Sequence record: NC_042084.1
Origin: Escherichia phage VB_EcoS-Golestan
Reading direction: 5' to 3' (one strand)
Length of the DNA stretch: 44,829 nucleotides
Shown: piece after piece, positions 28-37,636 of the stretch
Numbering within the stretch: the first letter of the stretch is position 1
How the letters are laid out: each line of letters starts with the position of its first letter
Translations under genes and position numbers: made by a program
The notes under the pieces: model-generated
What the model was told of the DNA's origin: nothing
Seen by the model: the letters and a program-made list of their open reading frames with translations, nothing else
Database searches by the model: none

Positions 28-1251
28 ATGCATTGCAAGTTTCCGGCATTCGTAGCTGGCTTCGGTACGGGTAAATCCGAAGTTATGTGCAACTCTGCAC
101 TACTCGACAGCATGGAAGGTGGTAGCGATTCTATCATCGCCATGTATGAGCCGACCTATGACCTGGTGCGCCTCATCCTTGCACCGCGTATGGAAGAAAA
201 GCTCACCGACTGGGGTATCCGGTACAAATACAACAAGTCTGACAACATAATCTATACGTCTTCCGGACAATTTGGGGATTTTGTTCTGCGTACACTTGAT
301 AATCCAGCAAGAATCGTTGGCTACGAATCGTTTCGTGCGAAAATCGACGAGTTGGACACCCTTAACATGGAGCACGCCGAGCACGCGTGGAACAAAGTCA
401 TCGCCCGTAACCGCCAGTTGCCGCGGACATATAAACCTATTACACCGAAACCTGCTAATACCGTTTCCGTGTTCACTACCCCGGAAGGATTCCGTTTCGT
501 ACATGACCGCTGGGTAGTCAAAAAGAATCCAGGCTACGAGATGATTCAGGCGTCCACCCTGTCTAACCCGTTCCTGCCAGAAGATTATGTGCAGTCGTTA
601 CGCGACACATACCCAGGTCAGTTGATTGACGCCTACATCGACGGCAAGTTCGTAAACCTCACGTCCGGAACGGTATACTATGCTTACGACCGCAGGAAAA
701 ACAGCAGTCGCGAAACAATCAATCCCGGCGAGACTCTGTATATTGGGCAGGACTTTAACGTAGGTCACATGGCGAGCACGGTTTACGTGCAACGCGGTAA
801 GGTCTGGCACGCTGTTGCCGAGTTGGTTGATATGTTCGATACGCCTGACGTAGTGCGGGCCATAACTGAGCGATGGAAAAGTAAGGGCCACTATATCGTT
901 ATGTACCCGGACGCCAGCGGCAAAAACCGTAAAAGCAACAACGCCAGTACCTCAGACATCGCTCAGTTACAGCAGGCCGGTTTCGAAGTACGCGCCAAAT
1001 CAACAAACCCGCCGGTTAAAGACCGCGTATCAGCAATGAACAAGGCGCTTGAATCTGGTATGGTCATGATTAATGAGCAGGCATGCCCGGTTACGGCGCG
1101 ATGCCTTGAGCAACAGGCTTACGACAAGAACGGCGAACCGGATAAATCGGGTGGTGTGGACCACCAGAACGACGGGACCACATATCCTATCGCGTATGAA
1201 ATGCCGATTCGCAAACCAGTTATTAATGTCCCGGTGACTTTCGCACTTTAA
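28..1251 (+). CDS. terL: terminase large subunit (5' end probably wraps to the window end)
   Basis: 407-aa ORF with Walker-A-like GFGTGKSE near the N-terminus. It follows terS across the window junction. The frame is open from nt 1 and in frame with GTG 44809. Confidence 0.85.
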   Translation: MHCKFPAFVAGFGTGKSEVMCNSALLDSMEGGSDSIIAMYEPTYDLVRLILAPRMEEKLTDWGIRYKYNKSDNIIYTSSGQFGDFVLRTLDNPARIVGYESFRAKIDELDTLNMEHAEHAWNKVIARNRQLPRTYKPITPKPANTVSVFTTPEGFRFVHDRWVVKKNPGYEMIQASTLSNPFLPEDYVQSLRDTYPGQLIDAYIDGKFVNLTSGTVYYAYDRRKNSSRETINPGETLYIGQDFNVGHMASTVYVQRGKVWHAVAELVDMFDTPDVVRAITERWKSKGHYIVMYPDASGKNRKSNNASTSDIAQLQQAGFEVRAKSTNPPVKDRVSAMNKALESGMVMINEQACPVTARCLEQQAYDKNGEPDKSGGVDHQNDGTTYPIAYEMPIRKPVINVPVTFAL

Positions 1252-1263
1252 GAGGATTATTCA

Positions 1264-2745
1264 ATGTTAACTATGAACGGTCAGAATCAGGGTGTTAAGA
1301 CAAAACACCGGGAATGGCTGCAGCACTTCAATAAATGGCAGAAGGTTCGCCATGCGCTGGAAGGCGACCTTATTCGCTATCTGCGCAACGTTGGGAAGAA
1401 TGAGCCGGACCCGACCTACGCGGCACAGCGCCAGGAAGAATACGAGAACGGCGCTATCTGTTACAACTTCACCAAGAGAACGCTGGCAGGGATGACGGGG
1501 TCGGTGATGCGTAAAGACCCTGAGCAAATTATCCCGCATGAACTGGAATACCTGTTGCACAACGCTGACGGTTCAGGCGTCGGGCTGTGGCAGCACGCGC
1601 AGGATACGTTAATGGAGATTAACTCGATAGGACGTGGTGGGTTGCTGGTTGACGCCCCGGAGACTGCTGCCGCAACGGCAGCTGAACAGAACGCAGGGTT
1701 ATTAAACCCGGTCATCGCATTCTACACCGCAGAGAACATCATCAACTGGCGACTGACCCGCGTCGGTTCTGTTAACCGTGTGACAATGGTCGTGTTGCGT
1801 GAAGTGTGGGAATACTCAGAACCTGGAGCAGAGTTCGAAACTAAGTTCGGTGAACAGTACCGCGTCCTTGACCTGATTGATGGTCGCTACCGCCAGCGCA
1901 TTTACCGTTTCGACGCCGAGGGCGGCGCTCAGGGCGAAGTAATCGAAATCTTCCCGGAACTCGGCGAACAGTTACGCGGCAAAATCCCGTTCACGTTCAT
2001 TGGTGCAAGCAACAACGATGCAACCATTGACGATGCACCTTTGCTGCCGTTGGCTGAGCTTAATATTGGGCATTTCCGCAACAGTGCAGACAATGAGGAG
2101 TCCAGCTTCGTCGTAGGCCAGCCTACTCTGTTCATCGCCCCCGGTGAGAACATGAGCATGGAACAGTGGAAAGAGGCCAACCCACACGGCGTGCGCATGG
2201 GGTCGCGTTCAGGCCATAACATTGGTTACGGCGGCAATGCGTTTCTGGTTCAGGCAGGAGAGAACAACCTCGCCAAGCAGAACATGCTGGATAAAGAGAA
2301 TCAGGCCATCCAGATTGGTGCGCAGCTTATCACCCCTACCCAGCAAATCACCGCTGAATCGGCACGGCTGCAACGCGGCGCGGATACGTCCGTTATGGCG
2401 ACAATCGCACGTAACGTAAGCATGGCATATACCGATGCGTTGCGCTGGGTGGCTGCGATGCTAGGGTTGCGTGAAGGTACAGAGGTTGAGTTCAAGCTGA
2501 ATATGGAGTTCTTCCTGCAACCAATGACCGCTCAGGACCGCACCCAGTGGATGGCGGATATTAACGCTGGCCTGTTACCGGCTACAGCTTACTATGCGGC
2601 ATTGCGTAAGGCGGGGGTAACTGACTGGACAGACGAGGACATTCAGAACGCTATCGAGGATGCGCCGCTGCCGTTAGGTGCTGTTACTCAGGTGGCGGGG
2701 GAGATTCCGCAGTCGGCGCAGCAACAGGACACCACTCAGCCGTAA
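1264..2745 (+). CDS. portal protein
   Basis: 493-aa ORF directly after terL. SD AAGAGGA lies 7 nt upstream. Size and position fit the terS-terL-portal-MuF order. Confidence 0.75.
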   Translation: MLTMNGQNQGVKTKHREWLQHFNKWQKVRHALEGDLIRYLRNVGKNEPDPTYAAQRQEEYENGAICYNFTKRTLAGMTGSVMRKDPEQIIPHELEYLLHNADGSGVGLWQHAQDTLMEINSIGRGGLLVDAPETAAATAAEQNAGLLNPVIAFYTAENIINWRLTRVGSVNRVTMVVLREVWEYSEPGAEFETKFGEQYRVLDLIDGRYRQRIYRFDAEGGAQGEVIEIFPELGEQLRGKIPFTFIGASNNDATIDDAPLLPLAELNIGHFRNSADNEESSFVVGQPTLFIAPGENMSMEQWKEANPHGVRMGSRSGHNIGYGGNAFLVQAGENNLAKQNMLDKENQAIQIGAQLITPTQQITAESARLQRGADTSVMATIARNVSMAYTDALRWVAAMLGLREGTEVEFKLNMEFFLQPMTAQDRTQWMADINAGLLPATAYYAALRKAGVTDWTDEDIQNAIEDAPLPLGAVTQVAGEIPQSAQQQDTTQP

Positions 2746-2755
2746 GTTCACATAT

Positions 2756-2776
2756 AGCCCCGAAAGGGGCTTTCTT
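2756..2776 (+). terminator. hairpin AGCCCC-GAAA-GGGGCT + TTCTT
   Basis: Read directly. Lies between the portal and MuF-like genes. Confidence 0.5.
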
Positions 2777-2781
2777 ATAGT

Positions 2782-3858
2782 ATGCTATTAACTTTAGTAC
2801 CACAGGGTTTAACTATGAGCTTACTTACATCCCTCATCAGCCATCAGATATGGCTGCAACGCACCGCATCCGGTGAGGTGAAAGACCTCACACCGTTCAT
2901 TCAGGAGATGCGGGATGAAATCAAACGGCAGGTGCTGTTATTCGGCGACGACGGGCGAAGCACTGCGCGGCTGAATAAACTGTTACGGGACCTTGAAGAA
3001 GCACTGACAGGGATTACAGGTGACTGGCAAACAAAGCTGACAGAAGACCTCAAGGAACTGGCGGCATATGAGGCTGAGTGGAACGTAAAGACACTGACCG
3101 CCAACGTAGCTGCGGAATTTGTTACACCTACCGCTGAACAGGTGTGGGCTGCTGCCGAGTTTCAACCGTTATCGTTGAGCGACAAGCCTGTTGACTTCAC
3201 TAAGCTGATGTCAGGTTGGGGTGAAACCGAAGTCGCGCGCCTGGTAACGGGTGTTAAGATGGGCTTTGTTCAGGGTAAGACAACACGGCAGATTGTTACA
3301 GAAGTAGTCGGTAAAGGCGGGCTGGCTGACGTATCAGAGAAATACGCCGCTACCGTAATCCGCACTGCGCTGTCTCACGTGTCCAACGAAGCCCGCAATG
3401 AAACATACCGCCAGAACGACGATATCATCGAGAAGTACGAATGGGTGTCAACGCTGGACAGCCGTACCAGTACGATTTGCAGAGCCAGGGACGGAATGAC
3501 GTGGGAAATCGGTAAAGGTCCGATGCCGCCAGCGCATCCGAATTGTCGAAGCACCACGGCTCCGGTAATCAGTTCAGAGTTCGACTTCCTCGATAAAGGC
3601 GCAAAACGGGCGGCTAAGGGCGCTGACGGCGGCACTCAGGTAAGCGCGGACACAACATATTACGAGTTCCTTAAACAACAACCGGCATGGTTCGTGGATG
3701 AAGCACTCGGGCCGACCCGCGGTAAGATTTTCCGCAACAGCGGTATATCGCCGGAAGAGTTTCGCGTAATATCTGTAGATGGTTTCGGGAATCCGCTCAC
3801 GCTTAAGCAGATGGCGGAACTCGATAAACGTGTTGCTGATTATCTGAAAGGGGGATAA
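2782..3858 (+). CDS. head morphogenesis protein (Mu F / SPP1 gp7-like)
   Basis: 358-aa ORF after the portal gene with the C-terminal motif PPAHPNCRSTT typical of the MuF/gp7 family. The start is ambiguous (ATG 2782 or ATG 2815). Confidence 0.7.
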   Translation: MLLTLVPQGLTMSLLTSLISHQIWLQRTASGEVKDLTPFIQEMRDEIKRQVLLFGDDGRSTARLNKLLRDLEEALTGITGDWQTKLTEDLKELAAYEAEWNVKTLTANVAAEFVTPTAEQVWAAAEFQPLSLSDKPVDFTKLMSGWGETEVARLVTGVKMGFVQGKTTRQIVTEVVGKGGLADVSEKYAATVIRTALSHVSNEARNETYRQNDDIIEKYEWVSTLDSRTSTICRARDGMTWEIGKGPMPPAHPNCRSTTAPVISSEFDFLDKGAKRAAKGADGGTQVSADTTYYEFLKQQPAWFVDEALGPTRGKIFRNSGISPEEFRVISVDGFGNPLTLKQMAELDKRVADYLKGG

Positions 3859-4319
3859 TGATGGGCTTTTTCAAAGTAACTGATGTACCGTCGCGTCGCG
3901 TTGTCCAGTTTGCTCGCGTGTCTGGCTCCGGCGAGAACGTGGTGTCTATTGGGGACGAAAGTGTGCTGGGTACACCAGTAGACGATATGCCGTTTGCGGA
4001 TAAAACCGGTATTGCGCTACCCGCGGCAGGGATGCTTTACGAGATTCCGTATCTGGCGGACGCAGGCGATGTGTATCTCTCTGTACAACCGAAAGACACA
4101 GAACTGACAGACGGCAGCGCGACTATCACTGTCGAAGTTAAGGCCGGTAAAGCACCATACGCGCTGACCTGGTACAAAGACGGTAAGGAAGTGGTAAACG
4201 CCCCTGCAGAGGCTCTGTCTCTGACGGTTAACGCGGTGGGTGAATACTTCGTTAAAGTTACCGATGCCGATGGCGTAGAGGCCTTCAGTAAAGCGGCGAA
4301 GGTTATTAAGCCTGAATGA
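3858..4319 (+). CDS. virion-associated protein with C-terminal Ig-like domain
   Basis: ATG overlaps the upstream TAA. The C-terminal half (ATITVEVKAGKAPYALTWYKDGKEV...GEYFVKVTDADG) has an Ig-like strand pattern. Confidence 0.5.
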   Translation: MMGFFKVTDVPSRRVVQFARVSGSGENVVSIGDESVLGTPVDDMPFADKTGIALPAAGMLYEIPYLADAGDVYLSVQPKDTELTDGSATITVEVKAGKAPYALTWYKDGKEVVNAPAEALSLTVNAVGEYFVKVTDADGVEAFSKAAKVIKPE

Positions 4320-4323: not shown

Positions 4324-4350
4324 AGGCCCCGAAAGGGGCTTTATTTTTAT
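4324..4350. terminator. hairpin AGGCCCC-GAAA-GGGGCTT + T-run
   Basis: Lies between convergent genes. Confidence 0.6.
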
Positions 4351-4418
4351 ATGAACATCGCGGTGATAACCGCAGCCGATACCCACAAAACAACATAAAA
4401 CATCACACTATTTGTCAT
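4347..4418 (-). CDS. 23-aa hydrophobic micro-protein
   Basis: MTNSVMFYVVLWVSAAVITAMFI. Its ATG overlaps the lipoprotein TGA (ATGA). It is below the ORF-track size cutoff. Confidence 0.3.
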   Translation of the reverse strand: MTNSVMFYVVLWVSAAVITAMFI

Positions 4419-4857: not shown

Positions 4858-4884
4858 GACGGCCTCCTCGTTTCGATGTAATGA

Positions 4885-4913
4885 ATAGTACCCTATTATA
4901 TTGGTGTGTGCAA
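4885..4913 (-). promoter_or_regulatory. class I promoter TTGCAC-N17-TACTAT with conserved leader
   Basis: Exact hexamers and 17-nt spacer. The leader reads TCATTACATCGAAACGAG then SD. It drives the lipoprotein cassette. Confidence 0.6.
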
Positions 4914-4979
4914 ACTATTTATTTACGTATTCCAGTTATTCCACTCAATTGTAAATGTTGGAATAAACTATTCGAATAG

Positions 4980-5008
4980 TTGACTTTTCACTAAAAATGT
5001 GCTAAGCT
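4980..5008 (+). promoter_or_regulatory. promoter TTGACT-N17-TAAGCT (leader module 1)
   Basis: Near-identical in sequence and spacing to 37602-37630. Confidence 0.6.
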
Positions 5009-5014
5009 CCACCT

Positions 5015-5212
5015 GAGCTTGTGAAGTATGAACAAGCGACCGCGGCGCGGGCAGGTAACGGAGCGGGACGTAAGGTCCTGAGTGTAGTTACGCTGACGCG
5101 TTCGGAAGGGCCATACTCTATTGCTTGTGTAAAAAGTAACGGGTTTACTGAGATTACGCCGTTTCTATGTTTAAATGATAAGGACTAGCGCCCCGCTTTA
5201 AGGCGGGGCTTT
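5015..5212 (+). ncRNA. putative ~200-nt leader/terminated transcript 1
   Basis: Runs from the predicted start site 7 nt after the -10 to the hairpin at 5190-5209. It shares a 38-nt identical block (5012-5049) and about 150 nt of homology with copy 2. Confidence 0.35.
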
Positions 5213-5218
5213 ACTTAT
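5190..5218 (+). terminator. hairpin GCCCCGC-TTTAAG-GCGGGGC + TTTACTT (end of leader 1)
   Basis: 7-bp GC stem read directly, with a partial U tract. Confidence 0.5.
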
Positions 5219-5233
5219 CGAGAAAGGGGAAAC

Positions 5234-5620
5234 ATGAATCTTAAAGCAACTGTCGTAGCAGGAGCATGTTTCATCATCCTGGCTTACGCCCACGGCATTT
5301 ACCAGTATCGCAGCGGCTGGAGCGAAGGCCGGGCGAATCTCGTTTCGCAGCAACAGCAGAAAGCGCAGGCTGAGTTAGCGAAGAAAACACAACGGCAGCA
5401 GCAGGACGAATCAAAGGCCGCCGCCGCCGACAACGAAGGCAAGACGAAATCAGAGGTGATTACCCGTGAAGTCGTTAAATACATTAAAACGCCAGGTCGC
5501 AGCGTGTGCACTTTTGACCCTGAGCGCGTGCAGCTCAAGTCCCGCGCCGTCGCCAACGCCAATTCCATCCCCGGATACGACGATGATGCAGCCGCCGTGC
5601 AAACTGGCGCAGCCAAGTAG
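5234..5620 (+). CDS. i-spanin (Rz-like)
   Basis: N-terminal TMD (ATVVAGACFIILAYAHGIY), then a Q/A/K-rich coiled region. It contains the +1-frame lipoprotein ORF expected of Rz/Rz1 pairs. Confidence 0.75.
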   Translation: MNLKATVVAGACFIILAYAHGIYQYRSGWSEGRANLVSQQQQKAQAELAKKTQRQQQDESKAAAADNEGKTKSEVITREVVKYIKTPGRSVCTFDPERVQLKSRAVANANSIPGYDDDAAAVQTGAAK

Positions 5621-5729
5621 CGACGCTGATGAGGATTTGGCCGTCGACGTTCAGAATGCTGAATGCGTACGGCAACTGAGACTGAAAGTGTTCATGTTGC
5701 AGGATTACGTGAGGAATATTCTGGAATAG
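5466..5729 (+). CDS. o-spanin (Rz1-like lipoprotein), overlapped architecture
   Basis: GTG start. Lipobox LTLSAC is followed by a Pro-rich segment (SSSPAPSPTPIPSP). It starts inside the i-spanin gene in another frame and extends past its stop. Confidence 0.7.
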   Translation: MKSLNTLKRQVAACALLTLSACSSSPAPSPTPIPSPDTTMMQPPCKLAQPSSDADEDLAVDVQNAECVRQLRLKVFMLQDYVRNILE

Positions 5730-5811
5730 TTGCCTTGCATGTTGGAATAATTTATTCTTGACATGTAAATCCGGGTGGCCCGGATTCCAACGTCCAGGGG
5801 ACATACTGACT

Positions 5812-6513
5812 ATGAATCGTTTTTTACGTTATCCGTTCCAGGAAGAAGCTGGAGCAGAAGATAAAGCTGGTGGCGGTGACGCTCCTAAAATGTTCACCGC
5901 TGAAGAAGTTCAGGCGCTGATTGAGAAAGAAGTTGCCGGGCTTAAGGCCAATCAGGAAGCATTGCTGGCGGAGAAGAAAGAAGCCGCCCGTAAAGCAAAA
6001 GAGGCCGAAGAAGAACGGCAGCGTGCGCACCAGGAGGCGTTAAAGGCCGCCGGTAAGATGGACGAGTTTGAAAAGACGATTCGTAGCCAGTATGACCCGG
6101 TGTTAGCCGAGAAAGATGGCCGCATCTCCAAAATGGCAGAGCGCATCCTCGGCAGCGAACGTAAAGCGGTGCTAGGCTCTTTCGCGGGTGACTTTATTAC
6201 CCCGGAAGCAGTGGACATCCTTGCGCCGTTCGTTAAGACTGAGTTCGAAGGTGATGATGTGGTTACTAAGTTTGTCGGCGCAGACGGTAACGTAATCACG
6301 ACTGACCCGGAACAGTTCCGCAAATACCTGCGTGAACACAAAGCGTTTTCGCATTTGATTAAAGCAAATGCAGCTTCCGGCGGCGGGGCTTCCGGTGGCA
6401 AAGGCGGCGGGGCCGCACCAGCGTTTAAAGACATGAGTGAAGCAGAGCGTTTAGCCCTGTATAAATCGAACCCTGCCGAATTTGAACGGCAACTTAAAGC
6501 CCTGAGGAAATAA
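5812..6513 (+). CDS. scaffolding protein
   Basis: Highly charged, alpha-helical E/K/A-rich protein immediately upstream of the major capsid gene. The ATG at 5812 is preferred over the track start 5758. Confidence 0.65.
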   Translation: MNRFLRYPFQEEAGAEDKAGGGDAPKMFTAEEVQALIEKEVAGLKANQEALLAEKKEAARKAKEAEEERQRAHQEALKAAGKMDEFEKTIRSQYDPVLAEKDGRISKMAERILGSERKAVLGSFAGDFITPEAVDILAPFVKTEFEGDDVVTKFVGADGNVITTDPEQFRKYLREHKAFSHLIKANAASGGGASGGKGGGAAPAFKDMSEAERLALYKSNPAEFERQLKALRK

Positions 6514-6515
6514 TA

Positions 6516-7565
6516 ATGGCAATTACCACTATCGGCGATATCGTAACTGGCAACATCCCGGTCCTGGCGTCTTATATGACCGAGGACCCGGTAGAAAAAA
6601 CCGCGTTCTTCCAGTCTGGTATTCTCACCCCGACCCCATACGCCGCCGAGATTGCCCGCGGCCCGTCCAACGTCGCTAATATTCCTTTCTGGAAAGCGAT
6701 TGATACCTCTATCGAGCCGAACTACTCGAACGACGTATACCAGGACATCGCCACCCCGCGTAACGTGCAGACCGGCGAGATGATGGCGCGCGTTGCGTAC
6801 CTGAACGAAGGTTTCGGTCAGGCGGATTTGACCGTTGAACTGACCAGCCAGAACCCGCTGCAATCCGTAGCGTCACGTCTGGATAACTTCTGGCAGCGTC
6901 AGGCACAACGCCGTCTGATTGCTACCGCGCTCGGGCTGTACAATGACAACGTAGCCGCTACCGACGCATACCACGAGCAGAAGGACATGGTAATCGACGT
7001 GTCTGCTACTCTGGGCTTCGATGCGGGCGCGTTCATCGACGCTACCCAGACTATGGGCGATGCTCTGATGGGCAACGGCGGTGAAGTGCTGGGGGCTATC
7101 GCGATGCATAGCTTCGTTTATGCGCAGGCACGTAAGCAGCAGCTTATCGACTTCATCCGTGACGCGGACAACAACACCATGTTCGCCACCTACCAGGGCT
7201 ACCGCGTGATTGTTGACGACAGCATGACCGTAGTCGGCACTGGCCCGACCCGTAAGTTCATCTCCATCATCTTCGGCAACGGCGCTATCGGTTACGGTGA
7301 AGGTTCTCCGTCCAACCCGCTGGAATACGAGCGCGAAGCGTCCCGCGGCAACGGCGGCGGCGTTGAAACCCTGTGGACCCGTAAGACCTGGTTGCTACAT
7401 CCGTTTGGTTACAGCTTCACCAGTGCAGTAATCACTGGCAACGGCACCGAGACTACCCCGCGCTCTGCTTCCTGGCAGGACCTGGCGAACGCCTCCAACT
7501 GGAACCGTGTGGTTGAGCGTAAGCATGTACCGATTGCCTTCCTGGTAACTGGTGTCGGTGCCTAA
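6516..7565 (+). CDS. major capsid protein
   Basis: 349-aa ORF after the scaffold gene, followed by a strong intrinsic terminator. Position and size fit a major capsid protein. Confidence 0.8.
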   Translation: MAITTIGDIVTGNIPVLASYMTEDPVEKTAFFQSGILTPTPYAAEIARGPSNVANIPFWKAIDTSIEPNYSNDVYQDIATPRNVQTGEMMARVAYLNEGFGQADLTVELTSQNPLQSVASRLDNFWQRQAQRRLIATALGLYNDNVAATDAYHEQKDMVIDVSATLGFDAGAFIDATQTMGDALMGNGGEVLGAIAMHSFVYAQARKQQLIDFIRDADNNTMFATYQGYRVIVDDSMTVVGTGPTRKFISIIFGNGAIGYGEGSPSNPLEYEREASRGNGGGVETLWTRKTWLLHPFGYSFTSAVITGNGTETTPRSASWQDLANASNWNRVVERKHVPIAFLVTGVGA

Positions 7566-7580
7566 GGTTAAGCTATAATC

Positions 7581-7609
7581 GAGAGGGACTTCGGTCCCTC
7601 TTTTCATTT
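7581..7609 (+). terminator. intrinsic terminator after the capsid gene
   Basis: GAGGGAC-TTCG-GTCCCTC followed by TTTTCATTT. Confidence 0.7.
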
Positions 7610-7626
7610 ACTAAGAGGATTCCTAA

Positions 7627-7968
7627 ATGGCAGACGTATTGAAGCGACGCATCACCGGCGTCTCCGCTGACGCCCCGGGGGCCAAGATTGACATGGAGAC
7701 TATTTCTCCTGCGTCTTTCTCTACGGCACTTAACGCTACTACTGCAGTAACCGCAGGTGAAACTATGACGCTGACAGTCGTAGTAGCTGGCGGTCTTGAG
7801 CCATATTCTTACCAGTGGTATAAGAATAACAACGCTATCGCCGGGGCAAACGCTGCTACCTACGCTAAAGCGTCAACCACTACCGCCGATTCCGGCACGT
7901 ATAAAGTGGTTGTTCACGATGTGTATGGTAATATTATCTCCAGCAGCACCGCAGCAACTGTGTCTTAA
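7627..7968 (+). CDS. Ig-like domain protein (candidate head decoration)
   Basis: C-terminal Ig-like pattern YSYQWYKNNNAIAGANAATY...DSGTYKVVVHDVYGN, directly after the capsid gene. Confidence 0.55.
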   Translation: MADVLKRRITGVSADAPGAKIDMETISPASFSTALNATTAVTAGETMTLTVVVAGGLEPYSYQWYKNNNAIAGANAATYAKASTTTADSGTYKVVVHDVYGNIISSSTAATVS

Positions 7969-7972
7969 TACA

Positions 7973-7990
7973 ACGGCCCTTCGGGGCCGT
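7973..7990 (+). terminator. hairpin ACGGCCC-TTCG-GGGCCGT (no U tract)
   Basis: A stability element or weak terminator after the Ig-like gene. Confidence 0.3.
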
Positions 7991-8004
7991 AATAAGGAAA
8001 GGTC

Positions 8005-8184
8005 ATGGCAGATAATTATGTAATCCGCGAAAAGTACACCCACGTTGATGTTGTTGACGGTCAGGTGATGCCTGTTCGCGGTGCGGTAGAAGCGGAAGAA
8101 CTGGTTGCAACACAACCGGACAACGAAGAAGCGCACAACAACGGTGGTGGTACTAAGCGACGTCGCCGTAAGTCAGAGGAATAA
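8005..8184 (+). CDS. 59-aa protein with basic C-terminus
   Basis: SD AAGGAAAGG precedes ATG 8005. The ORF ends ...GGGTKRRRRKSEE. It fills the gap between flanking genes and is below the track cutoff. Confidence 0.45.
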   Translation: MADNYVIREKYTHVDVVDGQVMPVRGAVEAEELVATQPDNEEAHNNGGGTKRRRRKSEE

Positions 8185-8187
8185 TTT

Positions 8188-8700
8188 ATGCCGCTAATCG
8201 TGGAAGATGGGTCGATAGTACCTAACGCTGACAGTTACGTTAGTCTGGCTGACGCCCGCGCGTTAGCGGCTAATTATGGCCTGGAGCTACCGGAAGACGA
8301 TACTGCCACCGAAGTAGCCTTGCGCAACGGCGCTACTTATGTCGGGCTTGCAGAACCGCAGATGTGCGGCCGCCGTGTGTCCGCCGAGCAGTCCCTGGCG
8401 TACCCACGTACGGGAACAACACTAAACGGCTTCACCGTAGCTGATAATGTTATCCCACCGCAGTTAATCCGGGCGCAGGTAATCGCCGCTGTTACGTATG
8501 GAGCGGGCACTGATGTTCGGGCTAACTCCGATGGACGTTCCGTGCAGACCGAGCGTGTAGAGGGTGCGGTAACAGTTACCTACTTCAACAACGGCAACAG
8601 CGGGGCCACAACCGCGATCACCGCCGCTGACGACGCCTTACGCCCGTTACTGTGTGGTGGTCTTAACAACGGCTTCTCATTTAATGTGTACCGGGGTTAA
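8188..8700 (+). CDS. head-tail adaptor/connector protein
   Basis: The N-terminus MPLIVEDGSIVPNADSYVSLADARALA resembles the DnaT-like/gp6-like connector family as remembered. The position lies between head and neck genes. Confidence 0.55.
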   Translation: MPLIVEDGSIVPNADSYVSLADARALAANYGLELPEDDTATEVALRNGATYVGLAEPQMCGRRVSAEQSLAYPRTGTTLNGFTVADNVIPPQLIRAQVIAAVTYGAGTDVRANSDGRSVQTERVEGAVTVTYFNNGNSGATTAITAADDALRPLLCGGLNNGFSFNVYRG

Positions 8701-8702
8701 AA

Positions 8703-9317
8703 ATGGCGAAGACTAAATCAGAGATGTTTACTCTTATCGGCGCAAACCTCCCCGATAACACTACCGGGCTTATTACCCCAGCAGCGTTGCGCGAGGTAAT
8801 GACACAGATGGCTGACTCACCTATTTACGCCACTCCAGGTGTTAAAGAGGTTGAAGTTCTCCGTGCCACGTCTACGGTAACCCAAGCGCCTACCGCGGTA
8901 GATACGGCATTGCAGTTAACTTTCGGTGCAGCTCAGGGTAGTGCATCCGACCCGGTAATGATTAATGCTGCGGGGCTGGTTACATTCAACACCGCCGGTA
9001 ACCACGCCGTTCGCATCAAGTTACAGGCAGGCCGCACAGGTGCCAGCGGAACGTCTATCCTGTTATCACGCATTCTTCTGAACGGTGCTCAGTACGGCTC
9101 ACCTGCCGCCACGAAACTGGTAAGCGCGGACACCACAATCCCGATTGAATCTCGCGTTGTTATTAACCCAACAGCAGGCCAGACGTTTGCCGTTCAGATT
9201 ATGCGGGATAGCGTCGGAACTAACTTCGGTGGTGTATACCCGCAAGCGGCTACCGTAACCGCATGGGGTACAGCCCCGTCCGCGTTGCTGGTTATTTCGA
9301 GACTGGAGGCCGCCTGA
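8703..9317 (+). CDS. virion structural protein, unknown role
   Basis: 204-aa ORF in the connector block. The N-terminal motif LPDNTTGLITPAALREV is of a kind seen in fibre or structural proteins. Confidence 0.4.
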   Translation: MAKTKSEMFTLIGANLPDNTTGLITPAALREVMTQMADSPIYATPGVKEVEVLRATSTVTQAPTAVDTALQLTFGAAQGSASDPVMINAAGLVTFNTAGNHAVRIKLQAGRTGASGTSILLSRILLNGAQYGSPAATKLVSADTTIPIESRVVINPTAGQTFAVQIMRDSVGTNFGGVYPQAATVTAWGTAPSALLVISRLEAA

Positions 9318-9676
9318 TGAGCACCGCTTTCAGTAAACGTATGCAAGGCGTGGGTACACGCCTGCTAACCAAATTCGGCAGCACGGTATCTCTGGTTCGT
9401 GCTGGCTCGAAAGTGTGGGATGAAGTTCTCGGTGAGTACGTCTGGTCTGCGGATGAAGTGTTGCCGTTGAAAGCGGTTCCGGTTCCGGTTAATGCTGGAC
9501 TGGTAAACGGTTCGACGATTCAGGCGGCCGACATGATTGTTAAAGCCGATTACAGCGTCGTTCCGAAGATGGAAGACAAGGTTCAGTTTAGCGGCGCGCA
9601 ATGGTCTATCGTAGCTATCGAGACGAAGATGGTTAACGATGATGTCGTGGCATATTTTATTCAGGTGAGAAAATGA
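9317..9676 (+). CDS. head closure / head-tail joining protein
   Basis: ATG 9317 overlaps the upstream TGA. The 119-aa size and position are typical of this role. Confidence 0.45.
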   Translation: MSTAFSKRMQGVGTRLLTKFGSTVSLVRAGSKVWDEVLGEYVWSADEVLPLKAVPVPVNAGLVNGSTIQAADMIVKADYSVVPKMEDKVQFSGAQWSIVAIETKMVNDDVVAYFIQVRK

Positions 9677-10068
9677 GTTTCGCGCTTGATGTCTCTAAGT
9701 TCGTGGAAAAGGCGAAGAAGAACCCTGAGAAGGTGATGCGTCAGGTGTCTATCAAGCTGTTTTCCGCTATTATAAAGGCGAGTCCGGTAGATACTGGTCG
9801 GTTTCGCATGAACTGGATGGCATCTGGCGGTACTCCTGCTTCCGGGATTACGGATGCTACGGATAAATCAGGAAACACAGCAACCGGAAACGCTACAAGT
9901 TTCGTGCTGAAAGCCACCGACTGGCATGAGTTCACGCTGACAAATAACCTGCCGTATGCACAACGGCTGGAGTATGGCTGGTCGCAACAGGCCCCGCAAG
10001 GATTCGTCAGGACTAACGTGTCCCGCTTCCAGCAACTCATTAACGAAGAAGCTAGCAAGGTGAGATGA
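9673..10068 (+). CDS. neck/tail completion protein (HK97 gp10-like)
   Basis: Motifs SPVDTGRFRMNW and LPYAQRLEYGWS match the gp10-like family as remembered. Confidence 0.6.
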   Translation: MSFALDVSKFVEKAKKNPEKVMRQVSIKLFSAIIKASPVDTGRFRMNWMASGGTPASGITDATDKSGNTATGNATSFVLKATDWHEFTLTNNLPYAQRLEYGWSQQAPQGFVRTNVSRFQQLINEEASKVR

Positions 10069-10481
10069 TGGGCTACTTTGAGGACTTAACAAAAGCGTTT
10101 GATGTGCCGCTGGTAGCCTTCGGAACCACCAACGGCATCAAGGTAGCGCTTGAAAACATCGACGCGCCGACGTCAACAGATACGCCGTATCTGGCAAGTT
10201 ACATGTTGCTGGCGGATACCGAGCAGGCTGACTTATTCTTCACGGAACAACGCGCCGGTGTCTATCAGATAGACATTAACTACACATCGGTGAAAGGTAG
10301 CGCGCCAATCAATAAAATGGCAGACTTACTTAACACGGCGTTTAAATCAGGTAAGTCATTTTCACGTAACGACATCTGCGCCGAGGTTCAATCGGTTAGC
10401 CTGGGGCCGCTGATTGTAGAAAACGGATGGGCCAAAAGACCATTGTCAATTAACTTTATTGCATTCACCAAGAGGCTGTGA
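10065..10481 (+). CDS. tail terminator protein
   Basis: 138-aa ORF immediately upstream of the major tail gene, with coupled start and stop. Confidence 0.5.
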   Translation: MMGYFEDLTKAFDVPLVAFGTTNGIKVALENIDAPTSTDTPYLASYMLLADTEQADLFFTEQRAGVYQIDINYTSVKGSAPINKMADLLNTAFKSGKSFSRNDICAEVQSVSLGPLIVENGWAKRPLSINFIAFTKRL

Positions 10482-11650
10482 ATATGGCTACAACTCCTTT
10501 TAAGGGCGCGAATACCGCGCAATTCTATGTGGCGGAAACTACCCCGGGCGTAACACCGGCTAACCCGGTATGGTCGCCACTGCGTAACACAGGCGGCGTT
10601 CCTGCCATTACCCGTGACACGCTGACCTCCAACGAACTGGACGGCAGCCGCGAAACTACATCCATCCGCACCGGTAACAAGCAGGTTAGCGGTGAATATG
10701 CTATTGAGCTTAGCTCGAAAAGCCAGGATGACTGGCTAGCCGGGGCTTTAGGCTCTACGTGGCAGGCTGGCGTATCTCTGTCAGGGCTATCGATTACCGT
10801 CGCACCGGCTGGCAAGACGTTCACACGTGCCACCGGCAGCTTTATCACTGACAGAGTTGGGGTAGGCGACCTGATTGCGTTTACCGATTTAACTGGCGAT
10901 AATGCAAAACCATTTATTGTTACTGCAGTAACGGCTACGGTTGTTACTGGTGCAGGCATCCAACACACCCTGACCACCGAGACAAAAACTAGTAAGGCTA
11001 AAACTGGCGACACGCTGGAAACCGGTAATACGTGTAAGACGTTCTCTATCCTTACCTGGTACAAAGGCCAGTGCGGCGGTACTGACGCGTACACGTTAAC
11101 CAAAGGCGTGGAAGTTTCTGGTTTTACCATCGAACAGGCTGTTAACGCGATGGTAACTGGCAGCTTCCCATTCATCGGTCGCAGTCAGGAGATTCTCACC
11201 ACGCCGCCGACCGGTTCCAACTTCTCATCTGTTACTTTTGGTGATGAGCCGTTTTCTTCGGTTGACGTTTCCGTGTTCGATGGTTCTACGCCGTTGCGAT
11301 GCGACAGTCTGACTATCACCAACGATAACAGCGCGTCCGCGCAGTTCGAACTTGGTAACACTAACGTAGCGTTTGTTGAGCGTAGCCGCGCGGCTAACAC
11401 TTTCTCCATCTCCGGCAAGCTGTACGACATGGCGATGATTCAGAAGTTTATCAACGAACAGCAGGTAGAGATTAACTCTATTCTGGCGGGGGTAAACGGG
11501 GCTATGTCTTTCAGTTTGAAACGCGCAGAGCTTACAGCAGTAACACCAGAGATTGGCGGACCCGAGTCAATCACTCAGTCCATTGAGGGGCAGGCCACCG
11601 GCAACCAGTACCAGTCGTCTATCGTAATTCAACGTATCACCTACGCATAA
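10478..11650 (+). CDS. major tail protein
   Basis: 390-aa T/G/S-rich ORF after the terminator-protein gene, followed by a strong bidirectional terminator. Confidence 0.65.
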   Translation: MNMATTPFKGANTAQFYVAETTPGVTPANPVWSPLRNTGGVPAITRDTLTSNELDGSRETTSIRTGNKQVSGEYAIELSSKSQDDWLAGALGSTWQAGVSLSGLSITVAPAGKTFTRATGSFITDRVGVGDLIAFTDLTGDNAKPFIVTAVTATVVTGAGIQHTLTTETKTSKAKTGDTLETGNTCKTFSILTWYKGQCGGTDAYTLTKGVEVSGFTIEQAVNAMVTGSFPFIGRSQEILTTPPTGSNFSSVTFGDEPFSSVDVSVFDGSTPLRCDSLTITNDNSASAQFELGNTNVAFVERSRAANTFSISGKLYDMAMIQKFINEQQVEINSILAGVNGAMSFSLKRAELTAVTPEIGGPESITQSIEGQATGNQYQSSIVIQRITYA

Positions 11651-11654
11651 AACT

Positions 11655-11680
11655 AAGGCCCCTTTCGGGGCCTTTTTCTT
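11655..11680. terminator. bidirectional terminator AAGGCCCC-TTTC-GGGGCCTT
   Basis: Flanked by A and T tracts and lies between convergent genes. Confidence 0.75.
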
Positions 11681-14078: not shown

Positions 14079-14120
14079 AACATAACTCCTGATTTGAGAT
14101 AACATCGTCGGTGTAAGTGA

Positions 14121-14149
14121 ATAGTACGCTATTATATTGGGGTGTGCAA
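14121..14149 (-). promoter_or_regulatory. class I promoter TTGCAC-N17-TACTAT
   Basis: Same hexamers and spacing as 4885-4913. It drives the Imm-like / phosphoesterase / phosphatase / kinase cassette. Confidence 0.6.
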
Positions 14150-14164: not shown

Positions 14165-14256
14165 AATTTTGCGCCTAGTGTCGCACACGAAAAGCGGGTG
14201 GTTCCCGTCTGGCGCATTTCCTTTAACCAGTAACCTCTTAACCAAAGGATTAAAGA

Positions 14257-14673
14257 ATGAAACTTTCTGATTTTTATTACGAAGCGGAAGCCGAAAAGGG
14301 CGCACGTATGCCGATACCGCTAAAAGACGGTACTGATTCCGGGGAATGGCTTAATGTTGTTTCTCCTGAGGCGGACGTTGCCGTTAAGGCTATGCGCGCG
14401 TTCACCCTTGCATACCGGGCAGTATTAGGGAAATTAAAACCGCTTCGTGATAAGTGCGAAGAGATGAAAGATTTCTCTGAATACAACCTGAAGATGGAAG
14501 ACGCGGCGACGGACCTTAACCGTCAGTTAGCGATTGAATTGGTTAACGGGTGGAGCCTTGACGACGAATTCAATAAAGAGAATCTGAACACACTCCTGAC
14601 GCAATATAAACGACTCGCGGAACTTGTTGTTGTGTTTCATAACGAACAACTGCACCAGCTACAGGAAAAGTAG
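14257..14673 (+). CDS. tail assembly chaperone (G-like)
   Basis: 138-aa ORF immediately upstream of the tape measure gene. It ends at a slippery GGAAAAG followed by TAG. Confidence 0.7.
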   Translation: MKLSDFYYEAEAEKGARMPIPLKDGTDSGEWLNVVSPEADVAVKAMRAFTLAYRAVLGKLKPLRDKCEEMKDFSEYNLKMEDAATDLNRQLAIELVNGWSLDDEFNKENLNTLLTQYKRLAELVVVFHNEQLHQLQEK

Positions 14674-15038
14674 ACGCGTTGCTCCAGTTCGCCCGTTGGA
14701 ACTTCATAACCCGCCACAAACGGCGGGAATTTGACAGTATCGCCGATGGGCATAAAGCCGCGCTAATTGCTATGGGGGTTATGCAAGACGCGCCGGATGC
14801 AACGCAGGCCGCTGGGCCGGAATGCCCCCCTGAGCTACTAACCACATTTGAGAAGTACAGGGAAATTAAATTCACCCGCCGAGTGGACGACGACGGCATC
14901 AAGATGTACCCGCGCGAGCAATTACGATGGTCAGATTTAGTGGCGTACAGCACCGTTTCAGGCCAGAATATAGGGATGTTCGAATCCGACATCATCATGA
15001 GCTTAGACGCTATTTTCGAGGGTAGAAACGATGGCTGA
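14257..15038 (+). CDS. tail assembly chaperone -1 frameshift fusion (GT-like)
   Basis: The -1 frame is open from 14643 to 15038. Slippage on GAA AAG (14665-14670) would continue V-D-A-L-L-Q-F. The product ends overlapping the tape measure start. Confidence 0.5.
14664..14673 (+). other. candidate -1 frameshift site GGAAAAG-TAG
   Basis: Lys codon AAG preceded by AAA in the -1 frame, immediately before the stop. Confidence 0.5.
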
Positions 15039-17370
15039 TGTAGCTAGTTTAGTAGTAAAAGTAACAGAGCAAGGCGCGAAAGCCACATCAGACCGTCTTG
15101 ACAACCTTTCAAAGTCCGCAAAAGTAGCGGGGGCCGCCGTAGCAGGCCTTGCTTCTATCGTAGCGGCTACCGCGTATAAAGCTGCCCAAGAACTGGTTGA
15201 CTCACAGCGGCAACTGGACAAGATGTCCGCCAGTTTGAAGACCTTAACAGGAAGTACCCAAGGTGCTAAACAGGCGCTAAGTATCCTGCAAGATTTTGCC
15301 CGCGATACCCCATACGGACTGGAGCAGGCGGTGGAAGGCTTCCGTAAGCTGGTGGCCCTTGGCCTTACCCCATCCGAGGAGGCGTTGCGGTCCTACGGCA
15401 ATACCGCATCGGCTATGGGCAAGGACCTTAATCAGATGATTGAGGCGGTAGCCGACGCCAGTACGTTTGAGTTCGAACGCCTAAAAGAATTCGGCATCAA
15501 AGCCAAGCAGAACAAAAACGACGTAGAGTTTACATTCCGGGGGACAACAACCGTAGTTAAGAAAAGCGCTGCCGATATTGAGCAGTATTTACTTAATATT
15601 GGTAACGTAAATTTTGCCGGTGCCATGGCGGACCAGGCCAACACCCTTAATGGCGCTATCGCGAGCGCCAGTGACTCATGGTCGCAGCTAAAAATGACGC
15701 TTGCCACCAGTCTTGATGTTGGCGCACTTGCGGAACCTATCAGGTATATCGATGACTTGATCCAGGAATTAAACGCGTCTGTTGCTTCCGGTGAATTAGC
15801 CGCTGAAATGCAGATGTGGGGCGACATAGCGTCGGAAGTAGGAAGCGCTATCGAGATGTCATTCGACGCTGCGTTTGGCTTTGTTGGTGATGCCATCAAC
15901 GGGCTTAATGAACTGTGGGATTTCAGCAGCAAGAGTATTACCGATAGCGGAGAACAAACGGCCACCACCATCGCTGAATCCGCCGCCGATGCTCTTGACT
16001 TCATCGCGGAAGAGTTCACCGCGATGGAGAGATTCTTTGAAGATATGGTTAAAGGTGCTCAGGACGCTGGCCGTCTTGTACGCGCCGCTTTTACCCCCGG
16101 GGAATCAGTAGACGTAGCTAAAAATATCAACTTCCAGCTTGGCATGGCTTTGGATACCCAGCGCGATGTCGCCGACGTTACGCGTAAAAGTTTCCGCGAA
16201 CAGGTAGAAGCTCAACAGGATATTGTAGCGTTAAAACGCGCGGCGTATGACATCGATAAGGAGTCCGCAAAAGCTGAGGGGTTAAACAAATTTAAGGTAA
16301 CCGGAACCGGCGGCGGTTCTGACGATGACGGGTCAGCCGCAAAAGCCGCTAAGAAAGCAGCGGACGCGTTCGAGCGCCAGAAAAAGGCGGCGGAAGACTT
16401 CTACTATCAGTCAATCCATCTTAATGATGACGTATTTCAGAAAATAGAAGCTAACCAGGAAGAGCAACTGTCTAAGTTGCAGGATTTTTATAGCAATAAG
16501 CTTCTTAGCGACCAACAGTACGAAAACGCCAAGACGCAGATTATGCTCTCTGCCGAACAGGCCCGCCAGGAAGAACTGGACAAGAAAAGGAAAGAAGCCC
16601 AGGAGAAGCAGCAGAAAGGTGATGATTTCATGGCTCAGATTATGGGCCAGAACGCCACCGAGCTTGAGCTTCTGGATATTCAGGAACAGCAGAAACTGGC
16701 GGTAGCCGATAAGTACCGGGAACAAGGTCTGATTAGCGAGAAGCAGTATCAGGCTGCGCTTAACGCCATCAACGAGCAGTACGCAACCAAGCGTGCCGAC
16801 GCAACGGCAACAGCTTTCGGTAACATGGCCTCAAACATCGGGTCTGCGTTGGGCGAGGCTTCTGGCGCGTATAAGGCATTCGCTATCGTACAGGCTACTA
16901 TAGCCACGTACACCGCAGCTATTGAGGCATACAAGTCAACGGCTGCTATCCCTGTTGTTGGCCCGTTCCTGGCCCCTGTAGCCGCTGCCGCTGCCGTCGG
17001 GGCAGGTATGGCGCAGATTTCCGCTATCAGGTCAGCACGTGAACAGGGTGGACAGTTATCCGCCGGGCAGGCTTCCACCATCGCTGAACGCGGTAAACCC
17101 GAAGTTATCATGCCCGCTGGCGCATCGCGTGTGCGCACCGCGCAGCAGATGAAAGAAATTATGGGGCAAAACGGGTCTTCTTCCGGCCCATCTAATGTTA
17201 CCATTGTAAATAATACATCGAGTCAGATTGGCAACGTATCCACCGAGCAGGATGATGAAGGCCGTCTGCGTATCATCATAGAAGAGCAAGTTGCTGCATC
17301 TTTGCAGAACAGCAACAGTAAGATTAGCAAGGCCCGCAAGGCCACAAGAAACGCGCCGGGGTTTAAATAA
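15031..17370 (+). CDS. tape measure protein
   Basis: 779-aa helical, A/Q/E-rich protein with a hydrophobic Gly/Ala-rich segment near the C-terminus. The position is canonical. Confidence 0.85.
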   Translation: MADVASLVVKVTEQGAKATSDRLDNLSKSAKVAGAAVAGLASIVAATAYKAAQELVDSQRQLDKMSASLKTLTGSTQGAKQALSILQDFARDTPYGLEQAVEGFRKLVALGLTPSEEALRSYGNTASAMGKDLNQMIEAVADASTFEFERLKEFGIKAKQNKNDVEFTFRGTTTVVKKSAADIEQYLLNIGNVNFAGAMADQANTLNGAIASASDSWSQLKMTLATSLDVGALAEPIRYIDDLIQELNASVASGELAAEMQMWGDIASEVGSAIEMSFDAAFGFVGDAINGLNELWDFSSKSITDSGEQTATTIAESAADALDFIAEEFTAMERFFEDMVKGAQDAGRLVRAAFTPGESVDVAKNINFQLGMALDTQRDVADVTRKSFREQVEAQQDIVALKRAAYDIDKESAKAEGLNKFKVTGTGGGSDDDGSAAKAAKKAADAFERQKKAAEDFYYQSIHLNDDVFQKIEANQEEQLSKLQDFYSNKLLSDQQYENAKTQIMLSAEQARQEELDKKRKEAQEKQQKGDDFMAQIMGQNATELELLDIQEQQKLAVADKYREQGLISEKQYQAALNAINEQYATKRADATATAFGNMASNIGSALGEASGAYKAFAIVQATIATYTAAIEAYKSTAAIPVVGPFLAPVAAAAAVGAGMAQISAIRSAREQGGQLSAGQASTIAERGKPEVIMPAGASRVRTAQQMKEIMGQNGSSSGPSNVTIVNNTSSQIGNVSTEQDDEGRLRIIIEEQVAASLQNSNSKISKARKATRNAPGFK

Positions 17371-18788: not shown

Positions 18789-18791
18789 CTT

Positions 18792-19307
18792 ATGAGTCAG
18801 GAATCAGTAGAAGCAGCCTACCGCCGTAAGCTGGCCTCAAACCCCGACGGCGAGATTGACTACACGACGCTGGAGATAGTGCATCCGCTTCTTTCGAAGC
18901 GGTATTTACTTGTGCGCGGGCTACAGGAACTTACGGCAACACTGGAGACAGGCGAAACTATCACATTCGAACCTACCCCGATGGAGGCGTCGGGGGCGGC
19001 TAACAACAGTGATATGGACCAGACGACAACATTCACTCTGCCGGATATTCTCAATCAACTGGATGATGAGATGGATAAAATCCCGATGAGTAATACCGAG
19101 TTACCGAAGTTCATATTCCGCCGTTACGTCAGCACTGACCTGTCTTACCCGGCTGACGGCCCTGTCGTGTACGAGTTACAGGCCATTAATCAGGAGAAGG
19201 GCGAGTTCTCCGCAGATGTCGGTACACCTATGCTGAACCAACGAAGCACTGGTATACTGATGACACCTAAAGAGATACCGTTATTACGCGGCCTGTTGAC
19301 CACATGA
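18792..19307 (+). CDS. minor tail protein (DUF1833 / L-like)
   Basis: Position matches gpL. The N-terminal pattern YTTLEIVHPLLSKRYLLV is as in the DUF1833 family as remembered. Confidence 0.55.
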   Translation: MSQESVEAAYRRKLASNPDGEIDYTTLEIVHPLLSKRYLLVRGLQELTATLETGETITFEPTPMEASGAANNSDMDQTTTFTLPDILNQLDDEMDKIPMSNTELPKFIFRRYVSTDLSYPADGPVVYELQAINQEKGEFSADVGTPMLNQRSTGILMTPKEIPLLRGLLTT

Positions 19308-22227: not shown

Positions 22228-22239
22228 AGAGGACTCTAT

Positions 22240-24225: not shown

Positions 24226-24229
24226 AACT

Positions 24230-24253
24230 AAGGCCCCAAACGGGGCCTTTTCT
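24230..24253. terminator. bidirectional terminator AAGGCCCC-AAAC-GGGGCCTT
   Basis: Lies between the tailspike gene and the leftward operon end. Confidence 0.7.
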
Positions 24254-27434: not shown

Positions 27435-27464
27435 TTCTCAATTCCTTATATTGTTGGTGTAGGA

Positions 27465-37630: not shown

Positions 37631-37636
37631 CAGCCT

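Follow-up and report, generated by a model that had tools for sequence, protein, structure and literature searches.

A Conserved Structured Leader RNA at Two Promoters of Escherichia Phage VB_EcoS-Golestan and Other Guernseyvirinae: A Candidate Antitermination Element

The genome of Escherichia phage VB_EcoS-Golestan (NC_042084.1; 44,829 bp, analyzed here in full and called the window) is that of a complete virulent phage of the genus Kagunavirus, subfamily Guernseyvirinae. It carries two copies of a leader element of about 110 nucleotides (nt). Comparative analysis indicates that this element is a real conserved structured non-coding RNA, and that it is a previously undescribed RNA family specific to Guernseyvirinae. 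Its function we infer from sequence, and our leading hypothesis is that it probably serves antitermination.

Results

Each copy lies in a divergent intergenic region and heads a plus-strand unit. The TTGACT-N17-TAAGCT promoters and the paralogous promoter-plus-leader layout, which had been proposed in a sequence-only reading of this DNA, were confirmed by direct reading of the plus strand at 4980-5008 for copy 1 (-35 hexamer TTGACT, 4980-4985; 17-nt spacer; -10 hexamer TAAGCT, 5003-5008) and at 37602-37630 for copy 2 (TTGACT, 37602-37607; 17-nt spacer; TAAGCT, 37625-37630). Both read as strong promoters of the sigma-70 type. The predicted start site of copy 1 is G5015/A5016, 7-8 nt past the -10 hexamer. 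An earlier in silico annotation of phage fBC-Eco01 marks the copy 1 promoter as a host promoter and also marks the terminator. Using blastn against GenBank, we found this promoter kept together with the element in 179 phage records, 41 of which match at two places.

The identical 38-mer and the second conserved block that had been described along with these promoters were also found at both loci. The 38-mer, CCTGAGCTTGTGAAGTATGAACAAGCGACCGCGGCGCG, is the same at 5012-5049 and 37634-37671, and an exact repeat of this length within 45 kb is far beyond chance. A repeat finder returned a single 70-nt family at this place (4980-5049 and 37602-37671, 89% identity). The second block, GCGTT.GG.AGG.CC.A..TCTATTG, occupies 5099-5123 and 37721-37745, and the homology decays beyond it. 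The figure of about 150 nt given earlier for the homologous leader has to be corrected: the conserved structured part measures about 115 nt (5009-5123). A covariance model scan of the window detected exactly two copies, with 136 bits for copy 1 and 88.9 bits for copy 2; the next match scored 11.5 bits.

Three parts make up the conserved RNA. At its 5' terminus is a hairpin, P1; next comes P2, a long imperfect hairpin whose internal loop is conserved; the tail, CGGAAGGGCC..UCUAUUG, is conserved as well. In copy 1 (5009-5123, plus strand; identified by covariance model, fold and covariation in 42 distinct homologues), P1 has the sequence GCUUGU-GAAGUAUGA-ACAAGC (5017-5037). It begins 2-3 nt past the predicted start site, and the transcript probably does begin with this hairpin, as had been suggested. 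The gap between P1 and P2 is 0-2 nt. P2 (5040-5105) has a CCG/CGG base, a bulged C and GGCGCG/CGCGUU with a tandem G.U, followed by CAG-GUAAC/GUUAC-G-CUG, the internal loop GGAG/AGUGUA and the apical stem CGGGAC/GUCCUG; the single-stranded tail AAGGGCCAUACUCUAUUG spans 5106-5123. Copy 2 (37631-37745, plus strand; covariance model, fold and alignment) contains the same P1, the P2 variant 'B' with a different, compensated interior, and the tail GGAGGCCCAAAGUCUAUUG. Despite the different P2 interior, both copies fold alike in P1, P2 and tail. In the subtype of copy 2, three substitutions create a perfect alternative hairpin, UUUGGG-AGG-CCCAAA (37723-37737, plus strand), which competes with the P2 base and which the other subtypes lack.

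Covariation, proposed earlier as a check on this leader, gave a strongly positive result. Homologues were drawn from GenBank phages and IMG/VR by pattern match and by anchoring on neighbor genes, a covariance model was built, and 83 matches were realigned, of which 42 are distinct. In these 42 sequences, which are phylogenetically clustered into about six subtypes and whose counts are somewhat biased because the alignment was fitted to the covariance model, standard pairs fill 95.2% of the cells, as opposed to 29-45% with the partners slid by 1-3 columns. Compensatory double changes occur at 12 of the 29 pairs, and the covariation score was reached by none of 500 column shuffles. Helices 3 and 4 contribute 11 covarying pairs out of 14, and one lower-stem pair is C-G in 18 sequences, U-A in 18 and A-U in 4. 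The same compensations are seen in plain MAFFT alignments. The tandem G.U is kept in 38 of 40 sequences; since it would be A.C on the opposite strand, the plus-strand transcript is the folding species. P1 contains U.G wobble pairs in 8 distinct sequences. Conserved positions include ACCGCGG.GC...GC.UUCGG, the tail AAGGGCC..UCUAUUG and the internal loop (5' side ..ACG(G)AGC..; 3' side ..GAGUGUAG.., or UAGCGUAA in Jerseyvirus). The apical loops vary freely (GUAA, GUCA, AUUA, CUCG, UCACAA).

An open reading frame (ORF) of 55 codons overlaps copy 1 at 5021-5188. We rejected it as coding sequence (CDS), as it is not conserved: a 1-nt indel leaves 19 codons in the commonest variant, and length and frame differ per subtype. 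Several GenBank records carry a 'hypothetical protein' CDS over the element (window 5021-5188; 522-638 in locus L237), and so does the annotation of fBC-Eco01 (fBCEco01_09). Because the ORF is not conserved among the variants these entries are probably spurious, and an RNA annotation should replace them. No tRNA or tmRNA was found in the window. The Rfam search that had also been proposed came out negative: no Rfam 15 family matches either leader, and searches at E <= 10 gave chance-level matches only.

When IMG/VR loci were anchored on the spanin gene, the element was found about 110 nt upstream of this gene in 45 of 47 cases, the other two loci being incomplete. The order is fixed: promoter, element at the transcript start, spacer of 65-100 nt, covarying GC hairpin, U-rich tail, ribosome-binding site, spanin. 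The region of the 38-mer is conserved in related phages, in line with the sequence-only reading. In Kagunavirus as in Jerseyvirus, P1 starts only a few bases from the predicted start site, though the P1 sequences differ. The Jerseyvirus form is divergent (37-45 bits), with the hexamer TACGCT, a shorter P1 (UACGCU-UUC-AGCGUA), and the same P2 plan and tail. In Cornellvirus FSL SP-031, the element model R1 gives no match, and a broader model, R3, has its best match in that genome precisely in the spanin leader at the syntenic position (13.4 bits, E about 0.13). Cornellvirus has the same leader layout and retains CGGAAGGGUC..UCUUUU at this weak syntenic match; its spanin leader is a probable diverged relative of the element. 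The element was not found in Serratia phage ZDD2, the nearest outgroup by capsid gene.

Model-filtered pattern scans of IMG/VR and of 185,579 GTDB genomes (one per species) returned Guernseyvirinae-type contigs only. Two 'bacterial' matches were rejected as mis-binned or contaminant phage contigs, and one actinophage match, inside a gene, was put down to chance. Record OR594183.1 (L005, Escherichia phage vB_EcoM_SHAK7858) is labelled Autographiviridae/Kayfunavirus, yet it contains both element copies and Kagunavirus synteny; it appears to be misclassified.

At the copy 2 site, anchored on the adjoining helix-turn-helix gene, the element occurs in 14 of 29 Guernseyvirinae loci. The remaining sites hold unrelated promoter-leader cassettes of type X (L105, L108) or type Y (L120, L122, L124, L129, L131, L132), which lie on the strand opposite to the helix-turn-helix gene, some 130-500 nt upstream of it. 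All cassette types end in a terminator-like hairpin, after which the first early gene has a promoter of its own that is highly conserved (TTGCAC-N17-TACTAT). Leaders of types X and Y gave no covariance model match. In type Y, GAAAACGAGC and GAAGUGUUAG flank a variable hairpin (AACGAGC-hairpin-GAAGUGUUAG), as in the internal loop of the element, and a GCUCUAUUC segment resembles the tail of the element; type Y may be either a very diverged relative or a carrier of a shared RNA module. The P2 subtypes A, B, C and D are shuffled between the loci, and one contig contains a D'-type at locus 1 and a C-type at locus 2. This exchange of P2 variants suggests that the two loci are functionally equivalent.

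The copy 1 element is followed by a spacer (5124-5189, plus strand) that, in alignments, holds a semi-conserved block, UUACUGAGAUUACGCCGU (5145-5162), the core of which, ..ACUGA..GCCGU.., recurs in all leader types. Then comes a terminator-like hairpin with its tail (5190-5218, plus strand; terminator scan, fold and covariation). The hairpin, GCCCCGCU-UUAA-GGCGGGGC (5190-5209; -17.2 kcal/mol, z = -3.2), continues into the tail UUUACUUAU up to 5218, and the leader from predicted start to hairpin tail measures about 200 nt in silico. Between Kagunavirus and Jerseyvirus the stem covaries (C-G to G-C in 7 of 14 sequences). We could verify that this GC hairpin with a partial U tract ends 16 nt before the spanin gene with no promoter between: the spanin gene begins with the ATG at 5234 and has its Shine-Dalgarno sequence, AAAGGGG, at 5222-5228, and a promoter does not fit into the remaining space.

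The rest of the copy 2 leader (37746-37860, plus strand) contains a ..GUUACUGAUUUGCCGUAG.. block, a (CACU)n tract (37800-37827, plus strand) and the hairpin UGGUGCC-UUC-GGCACCA (37828-37844; -11.2 kcal/mol) with the tail CGUUCGUUUCGUUUCG, a poor U-tract that makes termination here uncertain. The (CACU)n tract counts about 6 copies in the window and 3 in the RP180-like locus L116; being C-rich, G-poor and unstructured, it could be a Rho loading site. A separate promoter for the first early gene (37974) is located at 37911-37939 (plus strand; TTGCAC-N17-TACTAT). It is a member of a repeated promoter family and matches the PHIRE 'phage promoter' consensus reported for fBC-Eco01. Because this promoter lies between the hairpin and the first gene, read-through is obligatory at copy 1 only, the copy for which the sequence-only reading had claimed it.

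Terminator-like hairpins also occur within the two downstream units. One lies inside the copy 1-driven operon just past the major capsid gene (7581-7611, plus strand; -15.5 kcal/mol, z = -3.6), and expression of 7627-11650 would need read-through of this structure. Another is in the rightward unit past copy 2 (38998-39029, plus strand; -15.4 kcal/mol, z = -5.6), and more are present at 41965 and 2756. In whole leaders, RNAalifold and inspection revealed no strong conserved pairing between the element and the terminator stem, the best antiterminator candidate being about 4 bp long (GGGC/GCCC). RNAalifold also drew a weak long-range helix between the 5' arm of P1 and a segment just past the terminator hairpin. 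It pairs 5013-5027 with 5213-5227 of the window in Kagunavirus (CUUG/CGAG plus AAGU/ACUU) and 1308-1320 with about 1470-1480 of locus L100 in Jerseyvirus (UACGCU/AGCGUA, an exact repeat of the P1 3' arm). This helix is supported by two sequence states only and may be due to chance.

Around these loci the genome has four plus-strand units: one for terminase, portal and head (28-4319), one for spanin, head and tail (5234-11650), one for the tail (14257-24225) and one for early, lysis and small-terminase functions (37974-44819). The minus strand carries the replication genes (24254-37500). Early, accessory and replication units are headed by a second promoter family that is also repeated, TTGCAC/TTGACA-N17-TACTAT/TATAGT. 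Its members lie at 4882-4913(-), 14118-14149(-), 37911-37942(+) and 39113-39141(+), with related minus-strand sites at 27467-27496, 31235-31264 and 34128-34157. The spacer is a near-palindrome, AATAG..CTATT, that may be an operator, and a conserved 5' untranslated region, ..ATCGAAACGAG..GGAG, follows. The family matches the PHIRE consensus of fBC-Eco01, which has been attributed to a phage RNA polymerase; these phages encode none.

At gathering thresholds the only Rfam match in the genome is an int-alpA RNA (14168-14232, plus strand; 36.6 bits vs a gathering score of 35.8). This RNA is part of the tail operon leader, directly before the gene for the tail-assembly chaperone (14257), and its end is UUUCCUUU; a third late operon thus also starts with a structured leader. 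A further cassette is found at 42000-42150 (plus strand). Its promoter, TTGACA-N17-GATACT (42000-42028), drives a leader that is about 55 nt long and rich in C and U, ..CACCUCCUGUUCCAUCCCUCUGCUCUCC.., with an anti-Shine-Dalgarno-like CCUCC stretch. This leader ends at a strong terminator, CCCGGC..GCCGGG plus eight U (42070-42098), and another promoter, TTGACT-N17-TATATT (42122-42150), comes directly after. Repeated terminator modules, AAGGCCCC-loop-GGGGCCTT and GCCCCGAAAGGGGCT, end structural operons (11645-11676 and 24220-24251; 2757-2784 and 4326-4353), and the copy at 11655-11674 scores on both strands.

Discussion

With a confidence a little short of even, we propose that the element is a leader RNA acting in cis, and that it enables RNA polymerase to pass the terminator of the leader as well as internal ones. 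The RNA would be made at the extreme 5' end of transcripts from the strong sigma-70 promoter and would act in cis on the polymerase that transcribed it, either by itself, in the manner of HK022 put, or together with a factor of the phage or the host, in the manner of a nut site. The modified polymerase would pass the hairpin at 5190-5218 and then internal terminators such as that at 7581, and this read-through at copy 1 would allow expression of the spanin, head and tail genes (5234-11650). An unmodified polymerase would terminate at the 5190-5218 hairpin, and a leader RNA of about 200 nt would be set free. The same role is proposed for copy 2 in the long rightward unit, which passes the lysis genes and reaches as far as terminase and portal. 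What we infer here is where transcription starts, that the hairpins terminate it, that polymerase reads through, and that the RNA acts in cis. If such control of read-through exists, it would explain late-gene timing without a known late regulator.

A cis-acting leader RNA is the simplest model because the promoter of the element is the only plausible one before the hairpin, because terminator-like hairpins follow inside both units, and because neither a Q/N-type protein nor an antiterminator pairing came to light. A PHROGs scan of 30 small or unannotated ORFs, a part of all ORFs, found no Q- or N-like antiterminator and only two helix-turn-helix regulators, and the GenBank annotation lists no antiterminator. 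For spanin, head and tail transcripts of locus 1, the promoter of the element appears to be the only plausible source, and these transcripts would have to pass the hairpin at 5190. The lack of conserved pairing between element and terminator fits a polymerase-modifying mechanism better than a classical riboswitch.

Several observations weigh against this proposal. Start sites, 3' ends and read-through are all predictions, and published time-course RNA-seq of a Kagunavirus is at gene level only and silent on leaders (PMC12645636). The U-tracts are weak, most of all in copy 2 and Jerseyvirus (UUUACUUAU in copy 1, UUAGCGUAU in Jerseyvirus, CGUUCGUUUCG in copy 2), and hairpins of this kind may terminate poorly or serve another role. 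The early genes at locus 2 have their own promoter (37911-37939), and related phages swap the element for unrelated cassettes at this locus, which makes it dispensable there. The covariance models indicate no homology to put, and no convincing boxA was seen by eye. Finally, a promoter, a structured RNA and a terminator are also the layout of a stand-alone small RNA gene.

As the main rival we weigh a reading in which one or two strong promoters make a stable small RNA of about 200 nt that acts in trans, while late expression at locus 1 is incidental leakage through the terminator. Such an RNA could bind a host or phage protein as a decoy or sponge, counter defence systems, or act as a regulator through base pairing. 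Promoter and hairpin bracket both copies at a distance of about 200 nt, and the terminal hairpins would stabilise the transcript. The cassette at locus 2 has its own terminator followed by a separate promoter, and is exchanged for types X and Y elsewhere, as accessory early loci often are; the segment at 42000-42098 provides a second cassette of promoter, short RNA and terminator. We nevertheless consider this reading unlikely, if a serious contender, since copy 1 is universally conserved and fixed directly ahead of the late operon, and the U-tracts are weak for an efficient small-RNA terminator. Moreover, blastn against 5,426 complete genomes of E. coli and against the rest of the phage detected no similarity or extended complementarity, although short seeds are possible. 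With no match in the E. coli genomes and no second complementary tail site in the phage, a host origin and a long antisense target were both rejected. If it does act in trans as a small RNA, the element would still count as a new non-coding RNA conserved in phages.

A conserved internal loop and tail beside variable apical loops are typical of a ligand or protein pocket, and the terminator lies 65-100 nt downstream. These features would suit a riboswitch-like or protein-dependent attenuator, the domain of which binds a metabolite, an ion or a phage protein and decides the fate of the 5190 hairpin locally, with no processive resistance. We regard this mechanism as improbable, because no conserved, mutually exclusive antiterminator pairing beyond the GGGC/GCCC candidate was found in the leaders, the spacer between domain and terminator is long and poorly conserved, and Rfam gave no match. 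The alternative hairpin of type B copy 2 that competes with the P2 base would serve such a switch, but it exists in one subtype only.

A somewhat smaller chance goes to a 5' stabiliser or processing signal of the mRNA, with hairpins that block 5'-end-dependent decay or form an RNase III site and have no effect on termination. The position of P1 at the extreme 5' end in both genera, despite differing sequence, suggests such a generic role. RNase III cuts long, interrupted hairpins in T7, and P2 resembles these. However, the strict cross-genus conservation of the internal loop, the tandem G.U and the 18-nt single-stranded tail exceeds what a stabiliser needs, and the terminator that always follows would be left unexplained. 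We consider it very improbable that the element works at the DNA level or in priming, either as an operator palindrome for a helix-turn-helix protein or as an origin of transcript-primed replication. In favor of this, P1 forms a 6-9-6 inverted repeat across the start site, the genome has two helix-turn-helix genes (34222-34437 and 37312-37500), and G-rich RNA segments lie past a strong promoter. Against it, the tandem G.U and the compensatory changes speak for base pairing in the RNA of a single strand, both copies head operons on the same strand, and the U.G wobble variants of P1 break the palindrome.

Comparison with Known Systems

To our knowledge, very few systems of RNA-only or RNA-centred processive antitermination are known (put, EAR, canT, conAn2), and each of them taught how nascent RNA can reprogram RNA polymerase. 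The element described here, about 110 nt long, well defined and backed by covariation, is found in hundreds of sequenced phages of the therapeutic type, which rely on no polymerase other than that of E. coli or Salmonella. Its natural variants ease the design of mutational tests, and tractable hosts are available: E. coli K-12 in which the O16 antigen has been restored supports the BASEL phages Bas70-76.

The parallel to lambda PR'-tR' and HK022 put, drawn in the sequence-only reading, holds formally for the layout; it does not extend to homology with put, or to a Q/N-like match among the 30 ORFs scanned. With lambda PR'-tR' (6S RNA, Q), locus 1 shares a strong constitutive promoter, a leader of about 200 nt to a terminator, and late genes without a promoter of their own, here in silico. 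A near-copy of the -10 hexamer at the transcript start recalls the sigma-dependent pause elements of lambdoid late promoters, and could act as one. In Kagunavirus TAAGCT is followed by TGAGCT (window 5014-5019), which matches it at 5 of 6 positions and lacks the key A at position 2. In Jerseyvirus (loci L093-L102, near position 1305) the hexamer is repeated exactly 3 nt past the -10 hexamer (TACGCT-ACC-TACGCT), a candidate sigma-dependent pause element. Unlike these phage leaders, in which the RNA fold is conserved, the lambda system relies on Q, which acts through DNA and needs no structured RNA.

Lambda nutL/nutR (N, Nus factors) are likewise paralogous RNA signals past two promoters, and a hairpin with a linear motif could recruit a factor in either case. 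Here, however, no N-like arginine-rich protein was identified, and the structure of the element is far larger than boxB. By alignment inspection, the nearest approaches to boxA (GCUCUUUA or CGCUCUUA) are ACUCUAUUG, AGUCUAUUG and GCUAUAUUG, none of which matches across the family; the tail ..CUCUAUUG resembles GCUCUUUA only loosely, and GCUAUAUUG of Jerseyvirus not at all.

EAR of B. subtilis, canT of Tn916 and conAn2 of pLS20 are also structured RNAs that head long operons with internal terminators; they are cis-acting and processive, and each is a separate sequence family (PMC11658703, PMC8191782). They differ from the element in belonging to Gram-positive hosts and other mobile elements and in being larger (canT > 300 nt), sequence comparison having been made here through Rfam only.

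HK022 put suppresses termination in cis and independently of factors, through the zinc-binding domain of the polymerase beta' subunit. Like the element, putL and putR are two paralogous structured RNAs, each just past a strong promoter and upstream of terminators (PMC9378689). The putL RNA also starts at the transcript 5' end, its two adjacent stem-loops have little or no linker, and HK022 has no N for its early operons, just as no N/Q-type protein was detected among the ORFs scanned here. Homology was rejected, there being no cross-detection by covariance models in either direction. A model built from six put sequences (R2; searched at E <= 10 with filters off) found HK022 putL (90.9 bits) and putR (60.4 bits), and nothing at 5009-5123 or 37631-37745. 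The element model R1 gave no match at the HK022 put sites; a weak match that it gave close to PR' of HK022 (36886-36956, 15 bits) was, on inspection, put down to chance. A put site is about 74 nt long and consists of two comparable stems with a triplex, whereas the element, at about 110 nt, has stems of unequal length, P1 short and P2 long, followed by a tail that is single-stranded and conserved. Furthermore, put resides in lambdoid phages and has a known mode of action, and the element resides in virulent Guernseyvirinae with a putative activity that we read from its sequence. There is a minor chance that the element represents a new structural class of protein-independent, polymerase-binding antiterminator RNA, an analogue of put with an unrelated fold that would gate late genes throughout this subfamily of virulent Escherichia and Salmonella phages, with type Y as a further variant.

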